This document shows positions 1,641 through 23,752 of a stretch of DNA of 27,633 nt, piece after piece; the stretch's first letter is position 1; the number at the start of each line of letters is the position of its first letter. Position numbers and translations under genes: made by a program. The notes under the pieces are model-generated. The model did no database searches. It was not told the DNA's origin and saw only the letters and a program-made list of their open reading frames with translations. This stretch comes from a virus (taxonomy: Duplodnaviria > Heunggongvirae > Uroviricota > Caudoviricetes). The stretch lies in the IMG/VR virus record IMGVR_UViG_2630968911_000005, one strand, 5' to 3'.

Positions 1641-2183
1641 TTAAGAATCAGCCTGACTCGGGATCAGTTTTTGCCAGATAACTGAAACGTATTTTGCCAG
1701 GTAACGGGCGTCATCAAGTGCATTATGGCGCTCACCTTCGAATGGAATAGCCGTTCTGGCATCGAAGTCTATGGCTTTCCCCAGCTCAACGATTGTGCGT
1801 ACATCGCGATCGTTGTAGTAACGCCACGGGCAGGGGATCCCCTGCCGTTCGTATGAACGGCGCAAAATCGTGTTGTCGAAGTTGGCTCCATTTCCCCAAA
1901 CCTGAACAAAAAATTCACCGGAGTTTTCGTCGATAAATTCTCGCAATTGTAACAGTGCATCATCTAACGGGATTTCATCGGTCATAATGGCAGATTGCGC
2001 TTCGCGTGATTGCTTAAGCCACCATTTAATGGTGTCCCGATCAATGACTCCGCCAGCAGTTTCCAGATCGATAGTCTTACTAAATTCCGGTCCCATATCT
2101 CCGGTTTGCGGATCGAAAAATATTGCACCTATTGAGATGATCGGGGCATCAGGATTTTTTCCCATGGTTTCAAGGTCGATCAT
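1641..2183 (-). CDS. DnaQ-like DEDDh 3'-5' exonuclease; start uncertain (longest ORF runs to 2333, overlapping the upstream gene)
   Basis: Exo I motif MIDLETMG and Exo III motif HNALDDARY are present. The internal ATG at 2181-2183 avoids overlap with the upstream gene, whose stop is at 2231. Confidence 0.8.
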   Translation of the reverse strand: MIDLETMGKNPDAPIISIGAIFFDPQTGDMGPEFSKTIDLETAGGVIDRDTIKWWLKQSREAQSAIMTDEIPLDDALLQLREFIDENSGEFFVQVWGNGANFDNTILRRSYERQGIPCPWRYYNDRDVRTIVELGKAIDFDARTAIPFEGERHNALDDARYLAKYVSVIWQKLIPSQADS

Positions 2184-2230
2184 TAGATGGTCACACGTCC
2201 TGCTGGTGGATGTGATTTCGTGATGACCGT

Positions 2231-4111
2231 TCACCTTAATTGGGTGATCTGCCGTCTCGCCAGTTTCATTATCGCTATTGTGATGCTGATTGCCGCCAGT
2301 GTTCTCCTTGTGTGGATGTTCAGCGCCTTCCATTTCCTCCGGATCATCTCCTGAACTTCAACCTGATACTCTTCATCGAATGTTTCTTGGTATGTTGCGT
2401 CGCCCATCACCGCGCCACAATCAGGGCAGTTGCCGCCGCCGGTCTGACCGCAGGCGGTGCAGGCTTTTTCCACTTCCTGTTGCGCCACTGGTTCAGGCTG
2501 TTTCGTTTCTGGCTCGTTTTGTAACGCATTTGGACTGTTTTGTTCCGCTTTTTGGTAGTTCCGTTCCGATTCATGCTGGTTCTGGTTCACAGAATCGCGG
2601 GTCTGGAGCCCCTTAACCCATTTCGGATCATTCGGGTCACTAATCCCTTCAACAAATTCACCACGTGATGCAGCAAGCAACTTATCGGCGTCAGGCTGGC
2701 TGATATTGGCTGCCTGCATAATTTTGTTTACTTCGTCAGCGGTAACTTTTATCGGCTCTGGTTGTTCTGAATCTTCAGCGGTATCTACATTTTGCGGTAA
2801 GCCCGTGTATGTGCCATTTTTTCGGGCAAAATATTCTTCTTTTGTGATTTCAGTGGCGCCAGCAGCCAGTGCCTTATCCAGACCAGAGAGTTTGTTTGCG
2901 CGACCGTATTTTTCTCCGTCCTTATCTGCGAAGAGGAAATAGAACGGCCCCTCACGCTCTACAGATGGTTCAGCTTCCGGCGCGGTTTCATTTTTTGGGA
3001 TATCAGATACCTCAGTTTCCACTGCATCAGTTTGTGTTTCTGATGACTGGAGAACATCAACAGTGCCCAGGTCTGTTTCTTCATTCTCAAACACGCCCTT
3101 TGTCGTCAGGTATTCGCAGATATATTTGTTCAGTGCTACGGGATCTTTGTGAATGTCGATCGGACGCTCACGGACAAGGCCAAAAATAGTTTGGCGGTCG
3201 TAGCGAAGGGCATCAGGCTGTTTGCGCATTGATGCCGAGATACGCTTCCAGTCTTCGCGGTCGTTGTCGATAACTTCTTTTTTTGCCCAGCGATGGATGC
3301 TGCCGTCAATGTTTCCGGCATCCACATCACTAGGCCAGAGAGCGTAGGCCAGTTCGTCATCCAGTGTTTTCCATGTCTGCTTGTATTCGCGATGAATGGC
3401 AGCAATGACCGGGCTGATTTTTCCTGTTGAATTTTCAGTGTACTGTTGATTGGCTCTGGCGCGGGCGAGATCAACAACAGACGTGTATTTTCCGGTTTCC
3501 TTGCGTTCACCTTCGCGACGTTTTTTCCAGATGCGCATCTCTGCCTGAATTTCGGGCCATTTAGCACCAGGAATACATTTATGCTTAACCCACCCAATGG
3601 CGTGCAACTTAAGCTCCGGATACATGGCGTTAACTTCTGGCATTTTCATCAACGCTTCAACGATATGTCCGTCGAATGTTGCCATGTCTTCCTGCAACAA
3701 TTCCTGTGCGCTAATAACCATATCAACGGTGATGTTTTCACATGTGTCGAACTTAACCATGACAGCGTTCTGTACTTCAGGGGCCAGCTTGTCAAAAGTG
3801 ACGTTCATCGGATCGGATTCAGTCTCAACCGGGACAAAAGAAGCAGACTCCTCATCCCAGCGGTTTTCCTGCATATATTCAGCATCCCATGAATCGAGGG
3901 CAGGGCGGGGTATGCCAGGTTTATCCTCGCAGACAATAAATTTATAAGCGCAGTCCTGAGCAGCCGGATAATGTTCCAGGAATTGCCAGTGAAATTTTGC
4001 TCGAGCACGGCGTTCGTCGCCAGCTTCAATGGCTGTGGCTACAGCCACAGCGCCTTCTTCCCTTGTTGCCAGTTCGTCAGGAATAGCGGCGCAAATAAAG
4101 ACTTTACTCAT
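2231..4111 (-). CDS. Large early-operon protein, RecE (exonuclease VIII) N-terminal-region-like, ending in a Cys4 zinc ribbon; no recognisable nuclease domain
   Basis: Long ORF; ATG at 4109-4111 (MSKVF...) is preceded by GAGG 9 nt upstream. Internal segment KLLAASRGEFVEGISDPNDPKWVKGLQTRD resembles RecE as recalled. C-terminus has CTACGQTGGGNCPDCG. The acidic central region is low complexity. Confidence 0.6.
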   Translation of the reverse strand: MSKVFICAAIPDELATREEGAVAVATAIEAGDERRARAKFHWQFLEHYPAAQDCAYKFIVCEDKPGIPRPALDSWDAEYMQENRWDEESASFVPVETESDPMNVTFDKLAPEVQNAVMVKFDTCENITVDMVISAQELLQEDMATFDGHIVEALMKMPEVNAMYPELKLHAIGWVKHKCIPGAKWPEIQAEMRIWKKRREGERKETGKYTSVVDLARARANQQYTENSTGKISPVIAAIHREYKQTWKTLDDELAYALWPSDVDAGNIDGSIHRWAKKEVIDNDREDWKRISASMRKQPDALRYDRQTIFGLVRERPIDIHKDPVALNKYICEYLTTKGVFENEETDLGTVDVLQSSETQTDAVETEVSDIPKNETAPEAEPSVEREGPFYFLFADKDGEKYGRANKLSGLDKALAAGATEITKEEYFARKNGTYTGLPQNVDTAEDSEQPEPIKVTADEVNKIMQAANISQPDADKLLAASRGEFVEGISDPNDPKWVKGLQTRDSVNQNQHESERNYQKAEQNSPNALQNEPETKQPEPVAQQEVEKACTACGQTGGGNCPDCGAVMGDATYQETFDEEYQVEVQEMIRRKWKALNIHTRRTLAAISITIAIMKLARRQITQLR

Positions 4112-4203
4112 TTGTTTTAACCTCATGACAGATTTAAGGATGAACAAATCCCTGCCATTGCTGGCATATAAGAATGAAACCGGATATTTATTACGGAACT
4201 GTT

Positions 4204-4395
4204 TTAAAGACCTGCCGGGATTTCGATATTATCCTGGTGAATAACTTTATCGACCGGGTAACAGTTACCGGGAATTTTCTGTTCGGTTGCTGCAGTCATA
4301 CACTCCTGCATTGTCCTGTGAACACTGACTGCAATATCAACTGGCTCTCCGGAAACAAGAAAAACTGTCAGAACAAGCACAAATGCTGAATTCAT
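4204..4395 (-). CDS. Small hypothetical protein with N-terminal signal-peptide-like hydrophobic segment
   Basis: 63-aa ORF (MNSAFVLVLTVFLVSG...). Its ATG overlaps the stop of the upstream gene (ATGA, 4392-4395), suggesting translational coupling. Confidence 0.5.
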   Translation of the reverse strand: MNSAFVLVLTVFLVSGEPVDIAVSVHRTMQECMTAATEQKIPGNCYPVDKVIHQDNIEIPAGL

Positions 4396-4580
4396 TGTGC
4401 ACATCCTTTTGGCATCAGACGTAAACGAGCCAGCATTGAAACAATGCATATTTTATTTAATAGCTCCCGTTCTTGTTTTCTCTTGTTAATGGCATCTTCA
4501 GTAAATACTGGGTTACTGATAGTGACACCAATTTCAAAACAACCTTCAGACGTATTAACGTTTGGTAATAACGTTTTCAT
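4392..4580 (-). CDS. Small hypothetical early-region protein (62 aa)
   Basis: ATG at 4578-4580 with GAGGA about 9 nt upstream. Sits where lambdoid phages carry kil/cIII-like small genes. Function not recognisable. Confidence 0.5.
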   Translation of the reverse strand: MKTLLPNVNTSEGCFEIGVTISNPVFTEDAINKRKQERELLNKICIVSMLARLRLMPKGCAQ

Positions 4581-4663: not shown

Positions 4664-4993
4664 ATGTGCTGTGGCAGCCGCATGTTCTGGTTCGATAAGT
4701 CTGACGAACGGGCGATATTCAGCGATATCAGAAAAGAAGGATACACATTACGCAATGGGAGACGCTTGATTATCAGCCCTGACATTATCGCAGATTTTCG
4801 TGCATTATCATTTGCAGACGCATCTTTTTCGATGGTTGTATTAGACCCTCCGCATCTTGAGAGTGTTGGTGATAACGCCTGGATGGGAAAGAAATATGGA
4901 CGGCTGAATAAAGATGCCTGGCGTGATGATTCGCGACAGAGATTTAAAGAAGCCTTTCGGGTGTTGAGGCCGCACGGCGTTCTGATTTTTTAA
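4664..4993 (+). pseudogene. Truncated DNA N6-adenine/N4-cytosine methyltransferase fragment (DPPH motif)
   Basis: ORF contains SFSMVVLDPPH followed by RVLRPHGVLIF, the pattern of amino-methyltransferase motif IV and a downstream block. It stops right after, with no continuation in any frame. Confidence 0.5.
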
Positions 4994-5415
4994 TGGAATG
5001 AAACGCAAATACCGGTAAGCCAGATTCTGGCACTGACAGACAGAAAACCTGTTATCTGTCAACGAACAGGGAAAAAACGATAAAACCCACTGGATTATTT
5101 TTATGAAAGAGGCATCCAGTGAGTAGATTCGTAAGGCTACAGATACGTATATCTGAATAATTAAATTCAGTTCTGTAAATAAAATTTAATCCTTAACCGG
5201 ATGGATTTCTGCACCCTCAGAACATCAGGAGGCCGCCCGAAAGGGCGGTAGTGAAATGCGAAAGTTCAAAATTATTATTGAAACGGGAATAGCTGGTGGA
5301 GATTTTGAGGATGTATTCGAAGTGGACGATGACGCAACACCTGAGGAAATTCATGACGGAGCATAAGAAATTTTCTTTAACTACTGCAATTACTCATACC
5401 ACGAAATAAAAGACG

Positions 5416-5607
5416 ATGAGGAAGAACAAAGTGGCTGATTTTTGTTCAGCTAAATATAACATCAGTTTTGAAGAGCGGGATGAACTATTAATGGACTATG
5501 GTGAGTTACGCGGTGGAAGTGCTGCTGATGTCGAATCCTAGCGTGATGACTATGAAGCGGGAAAAACTCCGGTCGAAGCATATTGTGATGAGTGGGGCGA
5601 TGAATGA
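5416..5607 (+). pseudogene. Small ORF with in-frame amber codon (TAG 5539-5541); read-through frame stays open to TGA 5605-5607
   Basis: Manual translation: MRKNKVADFCSAKYNISFEERDELLMDYGELRGGSAADVES-TAG-RDDYEAGKTPVEAYCDEWGDE. The extended frame ends in an ATGA overlap with the next ORF. Confidence 0.3.
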
Positions 5608-5891
5608 GCGAGATTAATTATCAGGAAGGGCATGAAACGGCGGGGCAAGCAAAACCAGTGGCATGGCGATATCGCTACGTGAAAAAAGGCGTTACGGACT
5701 TTCAGGGGAAGTAGTGGTCTGGTGACTGGAAATATGTACCGAAAAAAGAGGATTGTAACGACAGGCCGAACTATCAAATTCAGGCCTTATTCACTGCCTC
5801 ACCAGTCCCAGTTACATCAGAAGAACTGGTTAAAGCTGTGCACTTTTATGAACAACTAAAACGCGAAAATCCACCAACATCCGGCAACTAG
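5604..5891 (+). pseudogene. Small ORF with in-frame amber codon (TAG 5712-5714); 95-codon frame if read through
   Basis: Manual translation: MSEINYQEGHETAGQAKPVAWRYRYVKKGVTDFQGK-TAG-WSGDWKYVPKKEDCNDRPNYQIQALFTASPVPVTSEELVKAVHFYEQLKRENPPTSGN. The downstream segment reads like protein and has no stops for 58 codons. Confidence 0.3.
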
Positions 5892-6145
5892 ATTAATGGA
5901 TTAACTATGTCGGTTAAACGACCAGCCAACTGAAAAAGCGGAAACCTGATTACAGGTTGCCAGATAAGGCAATGAGCTACCTGGCGCGGAACGGACTGAT
6001 AAGTATGGGGAATGTTTTACGATGAACCTTTAGACTAAAGAGTTTGTAACGCTATGTAAGTGATTTTTTCTGGTTTAGATATTTATATGTCCGGCCAAAT
6101 TGAGGTGTGTTTAAATGTAATTGCACATTGATTGTAGGAGGAATA

Positions 6146-6325
6146 ATGAAAAACGCATTGCAGTTTTTGTTTGTTGCGTTCTGGTTGTTCGCATCATGTA
6201 TGCCCATCATCTTCACAGCAAGGTATATGGAAAAAGTTGATGTTTTGATATTAATATTTGGATATATAAATGCCCTTTTTTTAGGGGTGTTCATGGCGGT
6301 CATGTGCATTGAATACTGGCGGTAA
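6146..6325 (+). CDS. Small hydrophobic protein (59 aa, two predicted transmembrane segments)
   Basis: ATG at 6146 preceded by AGGAGG 6 nt upstream. Product MKNALQFLFVAFWLFASCMPIIFTARYMEKVDVLILIFGYINALFLGVFMAVMCIEYWR. Confidence 0.45.
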   Translation: MKNALQFLFVAFWLFASCMPIIFTARYMEKVDVLILIFGYINALFLGVFMAVMCIEYWR

Positions 6326-6659
6326 ATACAGCGAACTCCATTGGTTTAGTTGGATATTTACTGTGCTGGACAAAAACGGTTTGCGGGGAAATCTTAGTTA
6401 AGTAGAATGACTGCGGGTGCTTGAGGCTATCTGCCTCGGGCATGGACACCAACGGCAGATAGAGAAAAGCCCCAGTTAACATTACGCGTCCTGCAAGACG
6501 CTTAACATTAATCTGAGGCCAATTTCATGCTAGACACATGTAGGTTAGCCTCTTACGTGCCGAAAGGCACGGAGAAGCAGGCTATTGTTAACACCAAGCT
6601 GTAATGTCCCCTTTGAACCATTCTAAAATGTCCCCAGACAATTCTCTGGGGGATTTTTC

Positions 6660-7973
6660 ATGATCAAAGAGACTGTTACGATGAGTCATAAGGAACTCCA
6701 CCGACTTCAGATTATTCAGGAACAAGCTGCGGCACGCATTGGCATTTCTATTCGGCAGGTTAAACGTCTGGTGCAACGGTATAGAAATGAAGGGCCTTCT
6801 GGTCTGGTTTCCCACCGACGTGGAAAGCGTCCTAATAATTCCTTTTCTACTGAATTCAGAGCAACAGTAATTTCACTCCTCAAAGGCCGTTACGCTGATT
6901 TTGGACCTACGTTTGCGTGCGAAAAATTGCGCGAGATACACGGTTTATCTTTATCCGTTGAAACTCTCAGAAAGTGGATGATAGAAGAGGGGTTATGGCG
7001 TGAACGCCGTCGTAAAATTGCCCGTATATATCAACGCCGCATGCGACGACCATCTTACGGTGAACTGATCCAGATTGATGGCTCACCTCATGACTGGTTT
7101 GAAAATCGAGGCCCCAGATGTACACTGATCGTTTTCATTGATGATGCCACCAGTGCGTTGATGGCGTTGCGTTTTGTGCCTGCTGAAACAACCCGGGCTT
7201 ACATGGAAACCCTCCGGGGTTACCTTAATGATCATGGCGTACCGCTCGCTCTCTACTCTGATAGACACAGTATATTCAGGGTAAATAACCCAGAGCGGGA
7301 AGGTGAGCTGACCCAGTTCACTCGTGCGATAAAGACACTGGGCATCGAGCCAATCCATGCCAACAGCCCGCAGGCAAAAGGGCGGGTAGAGCGCGCCAAT
7401 CAGACACTACAGGACAGGCTGGTCAAAGAAATGCGGCTTCAGAATATCAGTGATATTGAAACAGCAAATGCATGGTTGCCGACCTTTATTGAAGCCTATA
7501 ACAACCGGTTCGCTACGTCGCCTCGTACTACTGATAATGCTCATCTTGATGTGCACCATTCTGAAGAGGAACTGGGTTATATCTTCAGCCTACAGGCGAA
7601 GCGCGTTCTGTCTAAAAATCTCACTTTCCAGTACAAAAGCAGTGCGTTTCAGGTACGCAGTGAGGGCCGGGGATATCGACTTAGGCATTCGGTTGTTACT
7701 GTATGCGAGAACTTTGACGGTGAAATTAACGTTCTGTATGACGGGAAAGCGCTGGGCTGGGAAAAGTATGTTGATGGCCCGGAGCCTATACCACTGGATG
7801 ATGAAAAGAGTGTCCATGAACGAGTGGATAATGCCCGTATTGATTTACGCTCAAAATACTATGTTAAACCTAAAGCTGACCATCCCTGGCTTACGCGCCG
7901 AACGCAAAGTCATCAGCAAGTTAAGCCCCCGAAGTTACCTAAAAAGAAGCCTGATCCCGATAAAAAAGATTGA
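6660..7973 (+). CDS. DDE transposase/integrase, rve superfamily with N-terminal HTH; IS481-family or ISNCY(IS1202-group)-like
   Basis: 437-aa ORF. N-terminal pattern RQVKRLVQRYRNEGPSGLVSHRRGKRP; catalytic D (IQIDGS), D (LYSDRHSIF) and E (GRVERANQTLQ). RBS GGGGGA upstream of ATG. Confidence 0.8.
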   Translation: MIKETVTMSHKELHRLQIIQEQAAARIGISIRQVKRLVQRYRNEGPSGLVSHRRGKRPNNSFSTEFRATVISLLKGRYADFGPTFACEKLREIHGLSLSVETLRKWMIEEGLWRERRRKIARIYQRRMRRPSYGELIQIDGSPHDWFENRGPRCTLIVFIDDATSALMALRFVPAETTRAYMETLRGYLNDHGVPLALYSDRHSIFRVNNPEREGELTQFTRAIKTLGIEPIHANSPQAKGRVERANQTLQDRLVKEMRLQNISDIETANAWLPTFIEAYNNRFATSPRTTDNAHLDVHHSEEELGYIFSLQAKRVLSKNLTFQYKSSAFQVRSEGRGYRLRHSVVTVCENFDGEINVLYDGKALGWEKYVDGPEPIPLDDEKSVHERVDNARIDLRSKYYVKPKADHPWLTRRTQSHQQVKPPKLPKKKPDPDKKD

Positions 7974-8005
7974 AACCAAGATCGATTCGGTTGAGTGCAT
8001 TGATC

Positions 8006-8896
8006 CTACCCACGTAATATGGACACAGGCCTAAGCGAGGTTCTGGTTTTCAATTGTTCCGGACTGAGGCCGCCACACCAACTGTGCCGCCGCCACCGAT
8101 TGTAATCACATTCGATATAATTAAATACCGTTGCCCGCATTATTTCCCGGCTGATAAAGTGTTTTCCATGGATACATTCCACTTTCAGCGAATGAAAGAA
8201 GCTTTCCACGCAGGCATTATCGTAGCAGCAACCTTTTGCGCTCATACTTCCACGCAGATTATGCCGCTTCAGTTGCGCCTGATAATCTGCTGAACAGTAC
8301 TGGCCTCCACGGTCCGTGTGAACGATAACGTTCCGGGGCCTCTTACGCCGCCACAGCGCCATCTGCAGGGCATCGCAGGCCAGTTGCGCCGTCATGCGTG
8401 GCGACATTGACCAGCCAATAACGGCACGTGACCACAGGTCAATGACCACTGCCAGATACAGCCAGCCTTCATCTGTACGTAAGTACGTGATGTCTCCTGC
8501 CCACTTCTGGTTCGGGCCACTGGCGTAAAAATCCTGCTCCAACAGATTTTCTGACACAGGCAGGCCGTGTGCGCGGTAGCTGACCGGGCTGAACTTCCGG
8601 GAGGCCTTTGCCCTCAGTCCCTGACGGCGCAGGCTTGCCGCCACGGTTTTTACGTTAAAGGGGTAACCCTGAGCACGCAGTTCATCCGTCAGGCGTGGGG
8701 CACCGTAACGCTGTTTTGACCGGGTAAAAGCCGCGAGGACAACGCTGTCGCAGTGTTGGCGGAACTGCTGACGCGTGCTTATCCTTGTCCGCCGCTGACA
8801 CCACGTATACCAGCCGCTGCGGGCCACCCGGAGCACGCGGCACATTGCTTTGATGCTGAACTCAGCCTGATGTTTTTCAATAAAGACATACTTCAT
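8006..8896 (-). CDS. insF: IS3 transposase OrfB (InsF), DDE integrase core
   Basis: Protein matches IS3 InsF as recalled ([21 protein letters not shown] ... DRGGQYCS ...) except at the extreme C-terminus. Confidence 0.9.
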
Positions 8897-9192
8897 TTCA
8901 GGCGCTTCGCGAAGTATGTCGCGGCCTTTTGGAGGATAGCCAGCTCTTCATCCCGTTCTGCCAGCTGGCGTTTGAGACGTGCAATCTCGGTAGACATCTC
9001 CAGTTCACGTTCAGAAGACGTCTGCTGATTTTGCTGTTTACTGCGCCAGTTGTAGAGCAGTGATTCATACAGGCTGAGTTCACGGGCTGCGGCAGTAACA
9101 CCGATGCGTTCAGCAAGCTTCAGGGCTTCACTGCGAAATTCAGGCGAATGCTGTTTACGGGGTTTTTTACTGGTTGATACTGTTTTTGTCAT
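8893..9192 (-). CDS. insE: IS3 transposase OrfA (InsE), HTH protein
   Basis: [32 protein letters not shown]... matches IS3 OrfA as recalled. The ORF track begins 3 codons upstream (9201). Confidence 0.9.
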
Positions 9193-9669
9193 GTGAGTCA
9201 CCTCTGACTGAGAGTTTACTCACTTAGCCGCGTGTCCACTATTGCTGGGTAAGATCACATATCCATTCATAGGGTAGATTCTTAAGTCGCGTTTCTGGTG
9301 TTCATTTTCGGGTGGTTTGTTACTTGTTTTACCGGGGATATGCCAGAAACGCGCTGAGTCAGTCTGGGCGGTGCGCGTAATGAGGCGTTATGGTAAATAG
9401 CCTATGCTAATGTCCGCTAAGAGCAAGAAGCGGAAGTTGGCAGTTTTGTGGACTGTCCCCACAAAAGTGACTACAGAAATAGTTGCAATTCATAATTGAT
9501 CATGGGTTGTCAGTTAAACTCGTGGCGATTTAAATAGACTAATTGGGAGTGCGTCCATTACTTATATCTTGTAATGTTAACTATCAGAAATGATACAAAG
9601 ATAATATGTCTTTAAAGAAAAGGCTGATGGCGAAAAGTGGCCCGATGAGGGCCACAATACGGCTGTCAC

Positions 9670-10002
9670 TTAGACGTAAATATCAATGGTGCCAGCGGTA
9701 TTTGTATCGTCTTTTTTCTCTTCTTTTTTATCAGGCTGAACTGTCGCGTCTTCATTCTTTTTCTCTGCCTGCTGCCTTAACAACTGCTCCAGTTGAGCCC
9801 AGAGGCTTTCAATTTGCTTCTGTACCAATGCAGCCATTTCTTTTTTCTGCTGTGTCGTCATCCCCTCTTCCGATGAGATTTTCCCAAGCTTTTCAGTCAG
9901 CACCTGAATTTGTCTTGTGATTTTGGCTATTTCTGATGTTCCTTCCGGGGCGGAGTTGTTTGAAATAACGGTTGAGGTATTTCCCTGAATTGTGACAGAC
10001 AT
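9670..10002 (-). CDS. flxA: FlxA-like protein (FliA-regulated prophage gene)
   Basis: 110-aa product matches E. coli K-12 FlxA as recalled. RBS AAGGAG upstream. Confidence 0.9.
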   Translation of the reverse strand: MSVTIQGNTSTVISNNSAPEGTSEIAKITRQIQVLTEKLGKISSEEGMTTQQKKEMAALVQKQIESLWAQLEQLLRQQAEKKNEDATVQPDKKEEKKDDTNTAGTIDIYV

Positions 10003-10025
10003 AGATTTCTCCTTTTAAAAAAGCA

Positions 10026-10052
10026 CTATCGGCATGCACAAAAAAATCTTTA
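10026..10052 (-). promoter_or_regulatory. Sigma-28 (FliA) class 3 flagellar-type promoter for flxA
   Basis: Minus strand reads TAAA-N15-GCCGATAG (consensus TAAA-N15-GCCGATAA), ending about 24 nt upstream of the flxA ATG. Confidence 0.6.
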
Positions 10053-10204
10053 ATCGTATTTCTTGTGTCATTAATTGTTTGATGTTCAGATTGTTTTCCT
10101 CGCGGGCTGGCGCGCCTCAGAAAGTAAAGCTTGTTGACAGGGGTAAACGTTCGGCAATAATTTTCTGCCGCATGCGGGTGTTGCATAAAACGTGTTACGT
10201 TCCT

Positions 10205-10510
10205 TTATCGACAGGTCAGGTCACCGCTCACCCGCCGACGAGAAAGCAACACTGACATGCTAAAGCAAAAAATAGATGAATAAGTTGAGTTGTGCATATG
10301 TAGCCTGACCGTCACAAAGTATATGGTGTCTGTACCAGTAAGATGATGGCCGGACTCTTTAAAAACGAGCTGACCTGCACAATACAGGATGGACTTAGCA
10401 ATGGCTGCTCCTGGCACAAAGCGGACAGTGATCACCGTTCTTACGACTACTTTCTGACTTCCTTCGTGACTTGCCCTAAGCATGTTGTAGTGCGATACTT
10501 GTAATGACAT
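10205..10510 (-). CDS. ydfV: Hypothetical protein (YdfV-like position and length, 101 aa); doubtful gene
   Basis: ORF divergent from relB, same position and length as K-12 ydfV. No clear RBS or motifs. Confidence 0.3.
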   Translation of the reverse strand: MSLQVSHYNMLRASHEGSQKVVVRTVITVRFVPGAAIAKSILYCAGQLVFKESGHHLTGTDTIYFVTVRLHMHNSTYSSIFCFSMSVLLSRRRVSGDLTCR

Positions 10511-10523
10511 TTGTAATTACAAG
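10471..10523 (+). promoter_or_regulatory. relBE promoter (TTGCCC-N17-GATACT) with overlapping operator repeats (relO)
   Basis: CTTGTAATGACATTTGTAATTACAAG at 10498-10523 has repeated TTGTAAT hexads with dyad symmetry, just upstream of relB. Confidence 0.6.
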
Positions 10524-10534
10524 AGGTGTAAGAC

Positions 10535-10774
10535 ATGGGTAGCATTAACCTGCGTATTGACGATGAACTTAAAGCGCGTTCTTACGCCGCGCTTGAAAAA
10601 ATGGGTGTAACTCCTTCTGAAGCGCTTCGTCTCATGCTCGAGTATATCGCTGACAATGAACGCTTGCCGTTCAAACAGACACTCCTGAGTGATGAAGATG
10701 CTGAACTTGTGGAGATAGTGAAAGAACGGCTTCGTAATCCTAAGCCAGTACGTGTGACGCTGGATGAACTCTGA
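10535..10774 (+). CDS. relB: RelB antitoxin
   Basis: 79-aa product matches K-12 RelB as recalled (MGSINLRIDDELKARSYA...). Stop overlaps relE start (TGATG). Confidence 0.95.
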   Translation: MGSINLRIDDELKARSYAALEKMGVTPSEALRLMLEYIADNERLPFKQTLLSDEDAELVEIVKERLRNPKPVRVTLDEL

Positions 10775-20040: not shown

Positions 20041-20562
20041 ATGGAAGTCAACAAAAAGCAGCTGGCTGACATTTTCGGTGCGAGTATCCGTACCATTCAG
20101 AACTGGCAGGAACAGGGAATGCCCGTTCTGCGAGGCGGTGGCAAGGGTAATGAGGTGCTTTATGACTCTGCCGCCGTTATAAGATGGTATGCCGAAAGGG
20201 ATGCTGAAATTGAGAACGAAAAGCTGCGCCGGGAAGTTGAAGAACTGCGGCGGGCCAGCGAGACAGATCTCCAGCCAGGGACTATTGAGTACGAACGCCA
20301 TCGACTTACGCGTGCGCAGGCCGACGCACAGGAGCTGAAAAATGCCAGAGACTCCGCTGAAGTGGTGGAAACCGCATTCTGTACTTTCGTGCTGTCGCGG
20401 ATCGCAGGTGAAATTGCCAGTATTCTCGACGGGATCCCCCTGTCGGTGCAGCGGCGTTTTCCGGAACTGGAAAACCGACATGTTGATTTCCTGAAACGGG
20501 ATATCATCAAAGCCATGAACAAAGCAGCCGCGCTGGATGAACTGATACAGCATGGACGTTGA
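20041..20562 (+). CDS. nohQ: Terminase small subunit Nu1 homolog; C-terminal about 11 residues replaced at a deletion junction
   Basis: [42 protein letters not shown]... matches lambda Nu1 through ...AAALDELI, then ends QHGR. Confidence 0.9.
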
Positions 20563-23500
20563 GTACGGTCAGTACAGCGTTATTCTGTTGGTGGAGGGAT
20601 TCCCGCCGTCACATGCCGGGACCATCACCGTGTATGAAGATTCTCAACCCGGTACGCTGAATGATTTTCTCGGTGCCATGACGGAGGATGATGCCCGTCC
20701 GGAGGCACTGCGTCGTTTTGAACTGATGGTGGAAGAGGTGGCGCGTAACGCGTCCGTGGTGGCACAGAACACGGCAGCCGCAAAGAAGTCAGCCAGTGAT
20801 GCCAGCACATCTGCCAGTGAGGCGGCAACCCGTGCGACTGATGCTGCAGATTCAGCACGTGCAGCCAGCACGTCAGCCGGACAGGCCGCGTCGTCGGCTC
20901 AGTCAGCGTCTTCCAGCGCAGGAACGGCATCAACAAAGGCCACTGAAGCCTCAAAAAGTGCTGCCGCTGCAGAGTCCTCAAAAAGCGCGGCGGCTACCAG
21001 TGCCGGTGCGGCGAAAACGTCAGAAACGAATGCGGCAGCGTCAGAACAATCAGCCGCCACTTCTGCATCCACCGCGACCACGAAAGCGTCAGAAGCTGCC
21101 ACCTCAGCCAGGGATGCGTCGGCTTCAAAAGAGGCGGCAAAATCATCAGAAACGAGCGCAGCCTCGAGCGCCAGTCGTGCAGCCTCCTCGGCAACAGCGG
21201 CAGGAACTTCCGCGAAGGCGGCAAAAACGTCCGAGACGAACGCAAAGTCTTCTGAGACGGCAGCGGGACAGAGTGCCTCCGCAGCAGCAGACTCAAAAAC
21301 AGCGGCTGCCTCATCTGCCAGCGCCGCGTCAACAAATGCCGGGCAGGCCTCAGCCAGTGCCACCGCTGCCGGAAAGTCGGCAGAAAGCGCCGCATCATCC
21401 GCTTCAACAGCCACAACGAAGGCTGGCGAAGCCACTGAACAGGCCACGGTAGCAGCGAGGTCAGCTTCCGCAGCGAAGACATCCGAAACGAACGCGAAAG
21501 CGTCGGAAACCAGCGCAGAATCCTCAAAAACGGCTGCCGCATCGTCAGCCAGTTCGGCGGCGTCATCGGCATCATCGGCGTCTGCTTCAAAAGATGAGGC
21601 GACCAGACAGGCGTCAGCAGCGAAGGGCAGCGCCACGACGGCATCCACGAAGGCGACAGAGGCAGCTGGCAGTGCGACGGCGGCAGCTCAGAGCAAAAGT
21701 ACGGCGGAATCCGCGGCAACGCGCGCCGAGACAGCAGCAAAACGGGCAGAGGATATTGCATCCGCCGTGGCGCTTGAGGATGCGAGCACGACGAAAAAGG
21801 GGATAGTACAGCTCAGCAGTGCGACCAACAGTACGTCTGAAACGCTGGCGGCAACGCCAAAGGCAGTAAAATCAGCCTATGACAATGCAGAGAAACGTCT
21901 GCAGAAAGACCAGAACGGCACTGATATACCCGATAAGGGACGCTTCCTGAACAACATTAACGCGGTCAGTAAAATAGACTTTGCTGATAAGCGTGGTATG
22001 CGTTATGTGCGGGTTAACGCTCCTGCAGGTGCAACATCTGGAAAATATTACCCTGTTGTTGTTATGCGTTCTGCTGGCTCAGTAAGCGAACTGGCATCAA
22101 GGGTCATTATCACCACGGCAACGCGAACCGCAGGCGATCCGATGAATAACTGCGAGTTTAACGGATTTGTTATGCCTGGTGGCTGGACTGACAGGGGGCG
22201 TTATGCTTATGGAATGTTCTGGCAATATCAAAACAATGAACGAGCCATCCACTCAATAATGATGAGTAATAAGGGCGATGATTTGCGCTCTGTGTTCTAT
22301 GTTGATGGCGCTGCTTTCCCTGTTTTTGCGTTTATCGAAGATGGCCTGTCAATATCCGCACCTGGTGCTGATCTCGTTGTTAATGATACGACCTATAAGT
22401 TTGGGGCAACAAATCCAGCGACTGAATGTATCGCGGCGGACGTTATCCTTGATTTTAAGAGTGGGCGTGGTTTTTATGAGTCTCATTCGTTAATCGTTAA
22501 CGATAATTTGTCGTGCAAAAAACTTTTTGCCACAGACGAAATTGTAGCGCGTGGTGGTAATCAGATTCGAATGATAGGTGGGGAGTATGGTGCATTATGG
22601 CGTAATGATGGCGCTAAAACTTACCTGCTGCTTACCAATCAAGGTGATGTTTATGGTGGCTGGAATACATTAAGACCGTTTGCTATTGATAACGCAACCG
22701 GCGAACTGGTTATTGGAACCAAACTGTCCGCAAGTCTGAACGGTAATGCATTAACAGCAACAAAGCTGCAAACGCCAAGACGGGTTTCTGGTGTTGAGTT
22801 TGATGGTTCCAAAGATATTACTTTAACCGCCGCGCATGTGGCTGCTTTTGCCAGAAGGGCAACGGATACATATGCCGATGCGGATGGTGGCGTTCCCTGG
22901 AATGCCGAATCAGGTGCTTACAATGTCACCCGCTCTGGCGACAGCTATATTCTGGTTAACTTCTATACCGGAGTCGGAAGTTGCCGGACCTTGCAGATGA
23001 AGGCGCATTACAGAAATGGTGGTCTGTTCTACCGTTCTTCAAGAGACGGTTATGGTTTTGAGGATGACTGGGCAGAAGTTTATACCTCGAAAAATCTTCC
23101 ACCAGAAAGCTACCCAGTCGGCGCACCAATCCCGTGGCCATCAGATACCGTTCCGTCTGGCTATGCCCTGATGCAGGGGCAGACTTTTGACAAATCTGCA
23201 TACCCGAAACTTGCAGTGGCTTATCCGTCAGGCGTTATTCCTGATATGCGTGGCTGGACGATTAAGGGCAAGCCCGCCAGTGGTCGTGCCGTATTGTCTC
23301 AGGAACAGGACGGCATTAAATCGCACACCCACAGCGCCAGCGCATCCAGTACGGATTTGGGGACGAAAACCACATCATCGTTTGATTACGGCACTAAATC
23401 CACGAATAACACTGGTGCACATACCCATAGTGTTAGCGGTACGGCTGCTTCAGCCGGTGCACATACCCATTCGATGACATTTGTTTCAGGTGGTTCCAGT

Positions 23501-23752
23501 GGTGCTCCGGGAAGTGGATCACCTGATTATTCTAAATACAGTGTTAACACTTCTTCTGCAGGCGCTCATACGCACTCTGTATCGGGTACTGCTGCAAGCG
23601 CAGGTGCACACGCACATACTGTCGGTATTGGTGCTCATACGCACTCCGTTGCGATTGGCTCACATGGACACACCATCACCGTTAACGCTGCTGGTAACGC
23701 GGAAAACACCGTCAAAAACATCGCATTTAACTATATTGTGAGGCTTGCATAA
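20552..23752 (+). CDS. stfQ: Side tail fibre protein (lambda Stf family), N-terminally truncated by deletion
   Basis: Begins at lambda Stf internal [12 protein letters not shown]. Long Ala/Ser/Thr repeats (AAKTSETNA...). C-terminal GAHTHS repeats and ...[14 protein letters not shown]. Confidence 0.9.

Follow-up and report, generated by a model that had tools for sequence, protein, structure and literature searches.

The flxA gene of a Qin-type prophage is preceded by a class-3-type flagellar promoter, flxAp (10052..10026, minus strand), which is almost certainly read directly by RNA polymerase carrying FliA (sigma-28). FliA control of flxA is correct but already known, having been described in 1997 and confirmed genome-wide later, and the value of re-deriving flxAp from the raw sequence is that of a positive control for our scan. 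The added value of the analysis lies in the family pattern: a sigma-28 promoter accompanies flxA-like genes at a syntenic core locus as well as on prophages. Judged from these sequences, FliA control probably dates back to the ancestor of the FlxA family and entered the phage together with the gene. The evidence that FliA binds in vivo and in vitro, and that more than 99% of flxA RNA is lost without it, comes from published experiments; the position, statistical standing and conservation of flxAp were computed in the present analysis, which covered the whole stretch of 27,633 nucleotides (the window).

The sigma-28 motif upstream of flxA

Read on the minus strand, the sequence runs from ...ACGAT through the -35 box TAAAGATT (10052..10045), which sequence and pattern searches place one mismatch from the consensus TAAAGTTT, an 11-nt spacer TTTTTGTGCAT (10044..10034), the -10 box GCCGATAG (10033..10026) and the stretch TGCTTTTTTAAAAGGAGAAATCT to the ATG (10002..10000) that opens the flxA reading frame. 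The -10 box agrees with seven of the eight positions of the consensus GCCGATAA and keeps the core CGATA intact; its single mismatch, a G, falls on the last and least conserved position. Twenty-three nucleotides separate the -10 box from the ATG, with a Shine-Dalgarno sequence AAGGAG (10014..10009) between the two, 6 nt 5' of the start codon, and the strand is the correct one. The initial annotation had described TAAA-N15-GCCGATAG as a one-mismatch match on the minus strand at the right distance from the ATG, and the element at 10052..10026, 23 nt from the ATG, agrees with that description exactly.

Searched at up to one mismatch, TAAA-N15-GCCGATAA has the flxA site as its sole match in the window. 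By chance, 0.21 matches to this 12-base pattern would be expected per window, and 18 of 100 shuffles contain one or more; taken alone, it is weak and not significant across the window. The flxA match rises above chance because the whole element and its position are counted. The 16-base consensus TAAAGTTT-N11-GCCGATAA, to which the flxA site has two mismatches, is expected 0.022 times per window, and the chance of meeting it at two mismatches in the 40-nt zone 5' of a given start codon is 1.6e-5. Additionally, 21 published FliA sites with a FAT score of at least 10, flxA excluded, served to train a sigma-28 PWM. The flxA site scores 20.5 (training range 13.1-29.8; with 21 E. coli sites for training, absolute scores are rough) and ranks first among 55,212 positions on both strands of the 27.6-kb window. 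The second-best hit, TCCAGTCTTCGCGGTCGTTGTCGATAAC at 3247..3274 on the plus strand, scores 19.3 and has a weak -35 box. It lies antisense inside a long exonuclease gene (1641..4112, minus strand), in a stretch that is not in K-12, and resembles many intragenic FliA sites reported in K-12.

The claim that a FliA promoter can be read in front of flxA is borne out both by the top PWM rank in the window and by identity to a published motif. Indeed, the same 28-mer, TAAAGATTTTTTTGTGCATGCCGATAGT, was reported as a FliA site with a FAT score of 16 by ChIP-seq in motile MG1655 (Fitzgerald, Bonocora & Wade 2014, Table 2; PMC4183435, PMC4203485). The comparison of flxA RNA between fliA-deleted and wild-type cells, which would have been the natural check, is likewise already published, and its outcome in two independent data sets agrees with the initial annotation: normalised RNA-seq expression drops significantly, from 280 in motile MG1655 to 2 once fliA is deleted (PMC4183435, PMC4203485), and microarrays showed a -28.4-fold change in a fliA deletion and a +8.2-fold change 5 min after induction of sigma-F (Zhao et al., 2007; PMC1935009). 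In vitro, genomic SELEX with the sigma-28 holoenzyme and no other factor recovered the ydfV-flxA spacer with a peak of 23.2, among the stronger ones (Shimada et al., 2017; PMC5493296). The gene was named by Ide & Kutsukake (1997; Gene 199:19), in a paper whose title calls it FliA-dependent and dispensable for motility, and it co-varies with flagellar genes in unrelated transcriptomes in the literature.

The flxA locus and its prophage

The window is a Qin-type prophage and is the same as E. coli K-12 at flxA. The 701 bp around the site are 100% identical to the flxA/ydfV region of the Qin prophage of MG1655, and of 5426 complete E. coli genomes about 1200 have them. Over its left 10.3 kb the window matches strain G4/9 at 100%, and the G4/9 annotation lines up with the genes of the window throughout, save for a 2-bp offset. 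The flxA coding sequence (9670..10002, minus strand) has 333 nt and 110 codons for amino acids, is 100% identical to K-12 flxA, and its unit is placed between ydfV/relBE and ydfW in the Qin prophage. FlxA matches Pfam PF14282 over residues 7-101 with 53.8 bits (gathering cut-off 26.3; E=2.3e-14), and in PHROGs it corresponds to phrog_11044, a family annotated 'unknown function'.

Transcription would end at a hairpin (9655..9633, minus strand) that begins 14 nt past the flxA stop. RNA folding predicts a seven-pair, GC-rich stem (GTGGCCC, loop TCATC, GGGCCAC, then TTTT) of -17.3 kcal/mol, with z = -2.67 relative to shuffles, which makes it a probable intrinsic terminator. Its T run is only 4 long, which counts against such a role, and a scanner for consensus terminators made no call at 9655..9633, the run of four T being too short for it.

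Elsewhere in the prophage several features set this strain apart from K-12. A complete IS3 (8001..9257), with orfA/orfB and a programmed frameshift, lies between ydfW and flxA and is flanked by a 3-bp target duplication (7998-8000 and 9258-9260); it is not in MG1655, sits about 410 bp downstream of flxA and leaves the promoter untouched. The K-12 block for immunity and division control, dicC-dicA-ydfABC-dicF, is missing from 4665..7788, where the window carries instead a SAM-methyltransferase fragment, two pseudogenes and a truncated ISNCY transposase. Both dicB and ydfD are retained (about 4203..4579, minus strand), and since the dicC-dicA-dicF block has been replaced, dicB lacks its known repressor and promoter region in this strain. 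Further along, a tail-fibre reading frame (20552..23752, plus strand) is long, with 1066 aa, and is followed by tfaQ and the pinQ invertase; K-12 has a short remnant in its place.

Among the deposited phage genomes searched, a single record bears FlxA. This is Escherichia phage PhiR42_1 (our locus L004; PV340562; 48.7 kb), from E. coli ECOR13, which shares the order quuQ-ydfU-rem-hokD-relBE-ydfV-flxA with the window. Its gene order points to a Qin-like element deposited as a complete phage genome, and its annotators already tag flxA as 'FliA regulated'.

Genomes, metagenomes and viral contigs together supplied 131 Qin-type loci. The 120 nt upstream of flxA are identical in 95 of them. The spacer carries a single-base substitution in 11 of the 131 and is one T shorter in one; the -10 box reads GTCGATAG in four and ACCGATAG in one, and both variants occur in bona fide FliA sites. 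An IS5 separates the Shine-Dalgarno sequence from the flxA ATG in one locus (L128, an IMG/VR contig), and at least five complete genomes carry an IS1 in the flxA region. Such repeated IS hits are consistent with a dispensable gene. As the Qin-type loci are mostly near-clonal and not independent, they say little on selection.

Relatives of flxA and their promoters

A single-protein scan of genome contigs for FlxA relatives returned E. coli only, and viral and metagenome scans yielded mostly near-identical copies. Two divergent prophage-type lineages were nevertheless found, an Enterobacter type with 85% amino acid identity and a metagenomic type with 65%. The former has the promoter TAAAGATA-TTTTATTGCGT-GCCGATAG at -50 from the start codon and a Shine-Dalgarno sequence AAGGAG; the latter has TAAAGTCT-TTTCATGTAAT-GCCGATAC at -51, followed by GGGAGA. 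Both boxes and their 11-nt spacing are kept in the two types, and the spacer and flanks have changed. One further locus, L009 (P0112), was left out of the promoter comparison because its gene call starts too far upstream.

DNA homology to the window is limited to 10140/10165..9659 in the Enterobacter type and to 10062..9554 in the 65% type, where it extends from ten bases before the -35 box to beyond the terminator. The neighbours of prophage-type flxA vary and include IS3 orfA, lysozyme, SRAP and rve. Because homology ends near the promoter-gene-terminator block and the neighbours differ, the block is what has been inherited or moved as a unit. Qin flxA is a self-contained promoter-gene-terminator unit of ~420 bp, a probable 'moron': a single gene is enclosed by its own promoter (10052..10026) and a predicted hairpin terminator, and its neighbours vary in related elements.

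More remote relatives surfaced only with an exhaustive HMMER search and a profile search. The former gave 48 representative clusters, including about 15 full-length proteins at 30-46% identity, and the latter identified these as FlxA-like proteins of Kluyvera, Pseudocitrobacter, Enterobacter asburiae, Erwinia, Pantoea and Serratia. All eight remote loci that were fetched share one syntenic position, convergent on yfeR (LysR)-yfeH-ypeB-ligA, with gltX/tRNAs or xapAB-yfeN upstream. At least six genera have a core flxA-like copy next to yfeR; Enterobacter, Kluyvera, Pseudocitrobacter, Erwinia and Serratia are among them. In E. coli it is found in 1308 of 5426 genomes (about 24%), including O157:H7 and BL21, between the gltX-proximal tRNA cluster and yfeR (L149:2380-2776, O157:H7 Z885; also L140-L148), and encodes 113 aa with 43% identity to Qin FlxA over 74 residues. 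K-12-type strains have xapABR-yfeN at this position and no FlxA-like gene. The E. coli core gene has a top-ranked sigma-28 site of its own, TCAAGTTC-N11-GCCGATAT, at -55.

In total, 12 sources were scanned with the PWM: the window, the two prophage-type loci and nine core loci. In all 12, the best hit of the whole source, both strands considered, lies 50-61 nt 5' of the flxA-like ATG (-54 to -61 in the nine core loci), with scores of 10.3-24.5 and a next-best hit that is usually much lower. The -10 box stands 23-34 nt from the ATG in the 11 other lineages, and the spacer is 11 nt long in 11 of the 12, its sequence being free. When the twelve upstream regions were anchored on the -10 box and the information content was calculated per column, the -35 box, retained in all 12 lineages, held 1.10 bits and the -10 box 1.66 bits per column, with CGATA invariant at 2.0 bits per column, as against 0.26 bits for the 30 nt upstream and 0.38 bits each for the spacer and the downstream stretch. 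Across the aligned sequences, the pattern amounts to a clear phylogenetic footprint of a sigma-28 promoter. From their motifs, the core-locus flxA-like genes are predicted to be under FliA control in their own species.

Discussion

The mechanism that we propose for flxA is that of a late flagellar gene. FlhDC would turn on fliA, and export of FlgM via the finished hook-basal body would free FliA, the timing presumably being set through FlgM. The FliA holoenzyme would then bind TAAAGATT-N11-GCCGATAG and initiate about 7-10 nt past the -10 box to make a short monocistronic mRNA, composed of a ~15-nt UTR with AAGGAG, the 333-nt flxA reading frame and the hairpin at 9655..9633. The usual geometry of sigma-28 promoters predicts a start zone at 10016..10019 (minus strand) and a 5' UTR of about 14-17 nt. 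The table of transcription start sites (TSS) of Cho et al. (2014; PMC3923258) gives no start at flxAp, the strain used being perhaps poorly motile, and our literature search returned no further mapped flxA start.

Food for debate is how a prophage gene came under flagellar control. Qin flxA looks like a captured cassette, and from the sequence comparison the phage probably took up a unit that was already wired. Whether the fuller account is right, namely that FliA control is ancestral and family-wide for the FlxA-like proteins of Enterobacterales and that Qin flxA is a cassette from the host chromosome, we regard as an even question. In the literature searched we met no previous description of the core-locus gene or of sigma-28 control across the family, which is no proof of novelty. 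The initial annotation had spoken of a prophage gene being wired into the flagellar regulon. As a description this is accurate; the order of events was more likely the reverse, given that the whole FlxA family, core copies included, carries sigma-28 promoters.

The history implied by that wording, in which the sigma-28 promoter arose de novo in the prophage and the core copies are domesticated phage descendants, is rather unlikely. FlxA does match a PHROG phage family, phrog_11044, the Qin-type copies are found in prophage or IS-rich contexts, and no clear nesting of the Qin type within the core sequences is seen, its identity to them being only 27-44%. However, the core copy is syntenic (yfeR-yfeH-ypeB-ligA) from Serratia and Erwinia to Escherichia, and a single syntenic core position argues for old vertical inheritance. 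Moreover, the promoter is present in every lineage, so that one origin in the ancestor explains the distribution more simply than repeated gain would, and the unit found on phage, compact from promoter to terminator, changes its neighbours.

Alternatively, flxA might be transcribed mainly from a sigma-70/sigma-S promoter in ydfV, or by read-through from ydfV, with the sigma-28-like motif being incidental. Cho et al. (2014) assign a sigma-70/S-bound TSS, NC_000913.2 1644170(+), to the flxA transcription unit and give no sigma-28 start for it (PMC3923258, supplement 7). This TSS, which is supported by just 64 reads, maps to about 10261-10263 (minus strand) of the window, the coordinate conversion being good to about +/-2 nt. 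Inside ydfV, at 10269..10296 (minus strand), we noted a candidate weak sigma-70/sigma-S promoter, TGCACA-N16-TATTTT, from hexamers read by eye and with low confidence; if real, it would give rise to a minor flxA transcript whose leader measures about 260 nt. Additionally, ydfV is on the flxA strand, and the 202-nt gap between the two genes shows no obvious terminator. Yet a sigma-70 scanner called no site on the flxA strand from 9400 to 10600, a range that includes both this gap and the hexamers read by eye, and the sigma-28 motif is kept in relatives that have no ydfV upstream. When FliA is missing, flxA RNA drops about 140-fold by RNA-seq and 28-fold on arrays, which leaves a FliA-independent share below about 1% in motile cells. 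With a FliA dependence of ~140-fold, the promoter inside ydfV can at most be minor and secondary, and we consider it very improbable that it is the main source of flxA RNA. That FliA acts on flxA only indirectly, for instance through FliZ or another class-3 product, with the motif a chance look-alike, has next to no probability: expression data alone would not separate direct from indirect control, and a window would by chance hold 0.21 matches to the 12-base pattern, but the ChIP-seq peak of FliA sits on the motif, the ydfV-flxA spacer is selected in vitro by the sigma-28 holoenzyme alone, flxA is induced within 5 min of sigma-F induction, and in the comparison of 12 diverged lineages no columns other than those of the two boxes are conserved.

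Divergent from flxAp, the window also carries a near-consensus sigma-70 promoter, TTGACA-N16-AATAAT (11 of 12 positions; 10134..10161, plus strand), which points antisense through ydfV toward relB and has its TSS near 10172-10174 (plus strand). It matches TSS NC_000913.2 1644259(-), with 21 reads, assigned to relB-relE-hokD (Cho et al., 2014; PMC3923258), and this match suggests that relBE has a distal promoter whose transcript carries a leader of about 360 nt. As ydfV has this antisense promoter and matches no Pfam or PHROG family, some doubt arises as to whether it is a real gene.

The AlphaFold model of FlxA, built on a 20-sequence alignment, shows helices 24-42 and 50-86 paired as a helical hairpin, and both termini are disordered; its mean pLDDT is 66.6 and reaches 77-89 in the helices. 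Throughout the family, the N-terminus is rich in Ser, Thr and Gly, the coiled coil is rich in Gln, and the C-terminal tail reads ...IDIYV/I. A sequence search of the PDB with FlxA gave generic coiled-coil matches only and no related solved structure, and Foldseek of the model against the PDB produced no hit below E = 0.9. The retention of a sigma-28 promoter across diverged Enterobacterales argues for a selected, flagellum-timed role of FlxA, despite the dispensable prophage copy of E. coli. If the ancestral reading is true, FlxA-like proteins would have a real late-flagellar role, perhaps as export substrates or as accessory factors. In strains with a core copy (O157:H7, Enterobacter, Serratia), loss-of-function tests would be neither confounded nor trivial. 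Qin flxA, for its part, is a clean example of a phage with a host-regulon cassette.

Among known systems, the closest is flxAp of E. coli K-12, which is the same promoter: the 28-mer of the window equals the published FliA motif, and the 701 bp around it are 100% identical to MG1655. The host strain differs from K-12 away from the promoter, in the IS3 located 410 bp downstream of flxA and in the replaced dicC-dicA-dicF block. With the class 3 promoters of tar, fliC, flgMN, tsr and yhjH, flxAp shares TAAAGxTT-N11-GCCGATAA, direct FliA binding and strong FliA dependence, and the -35 box of flgMN is the same, TAAAGATT. Unlike canonical class 3 promoters, flxAp serves a gene that is dispensable for motility and lies in a defective prophage, and the last base of its -10 box is G. 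Another K-12 cryptic-prophage gene under direct FliA control is ykfB of the CP4-6 prophage, the promoter of which is inside yafY; this intragenic promoter has a modest effect (118 to 42), whereas flxAp is intergenic and nearly all-or-none. Finally, morons are self-contained promoter-gene-terminator inserts in lambdoid prophages that are transcribed from the repressed prophage. The flxA unit resembles them in being compact, in being expressed while the prophage is repressed, in having its own promoter and hairpin terminator and in the differing neighbours that it has across prophages. It differs from them in relying on an alternative sigma factor of the host, not on sigma-70, and in belonging to a paralogue family of the core genome with the same type of promoter.
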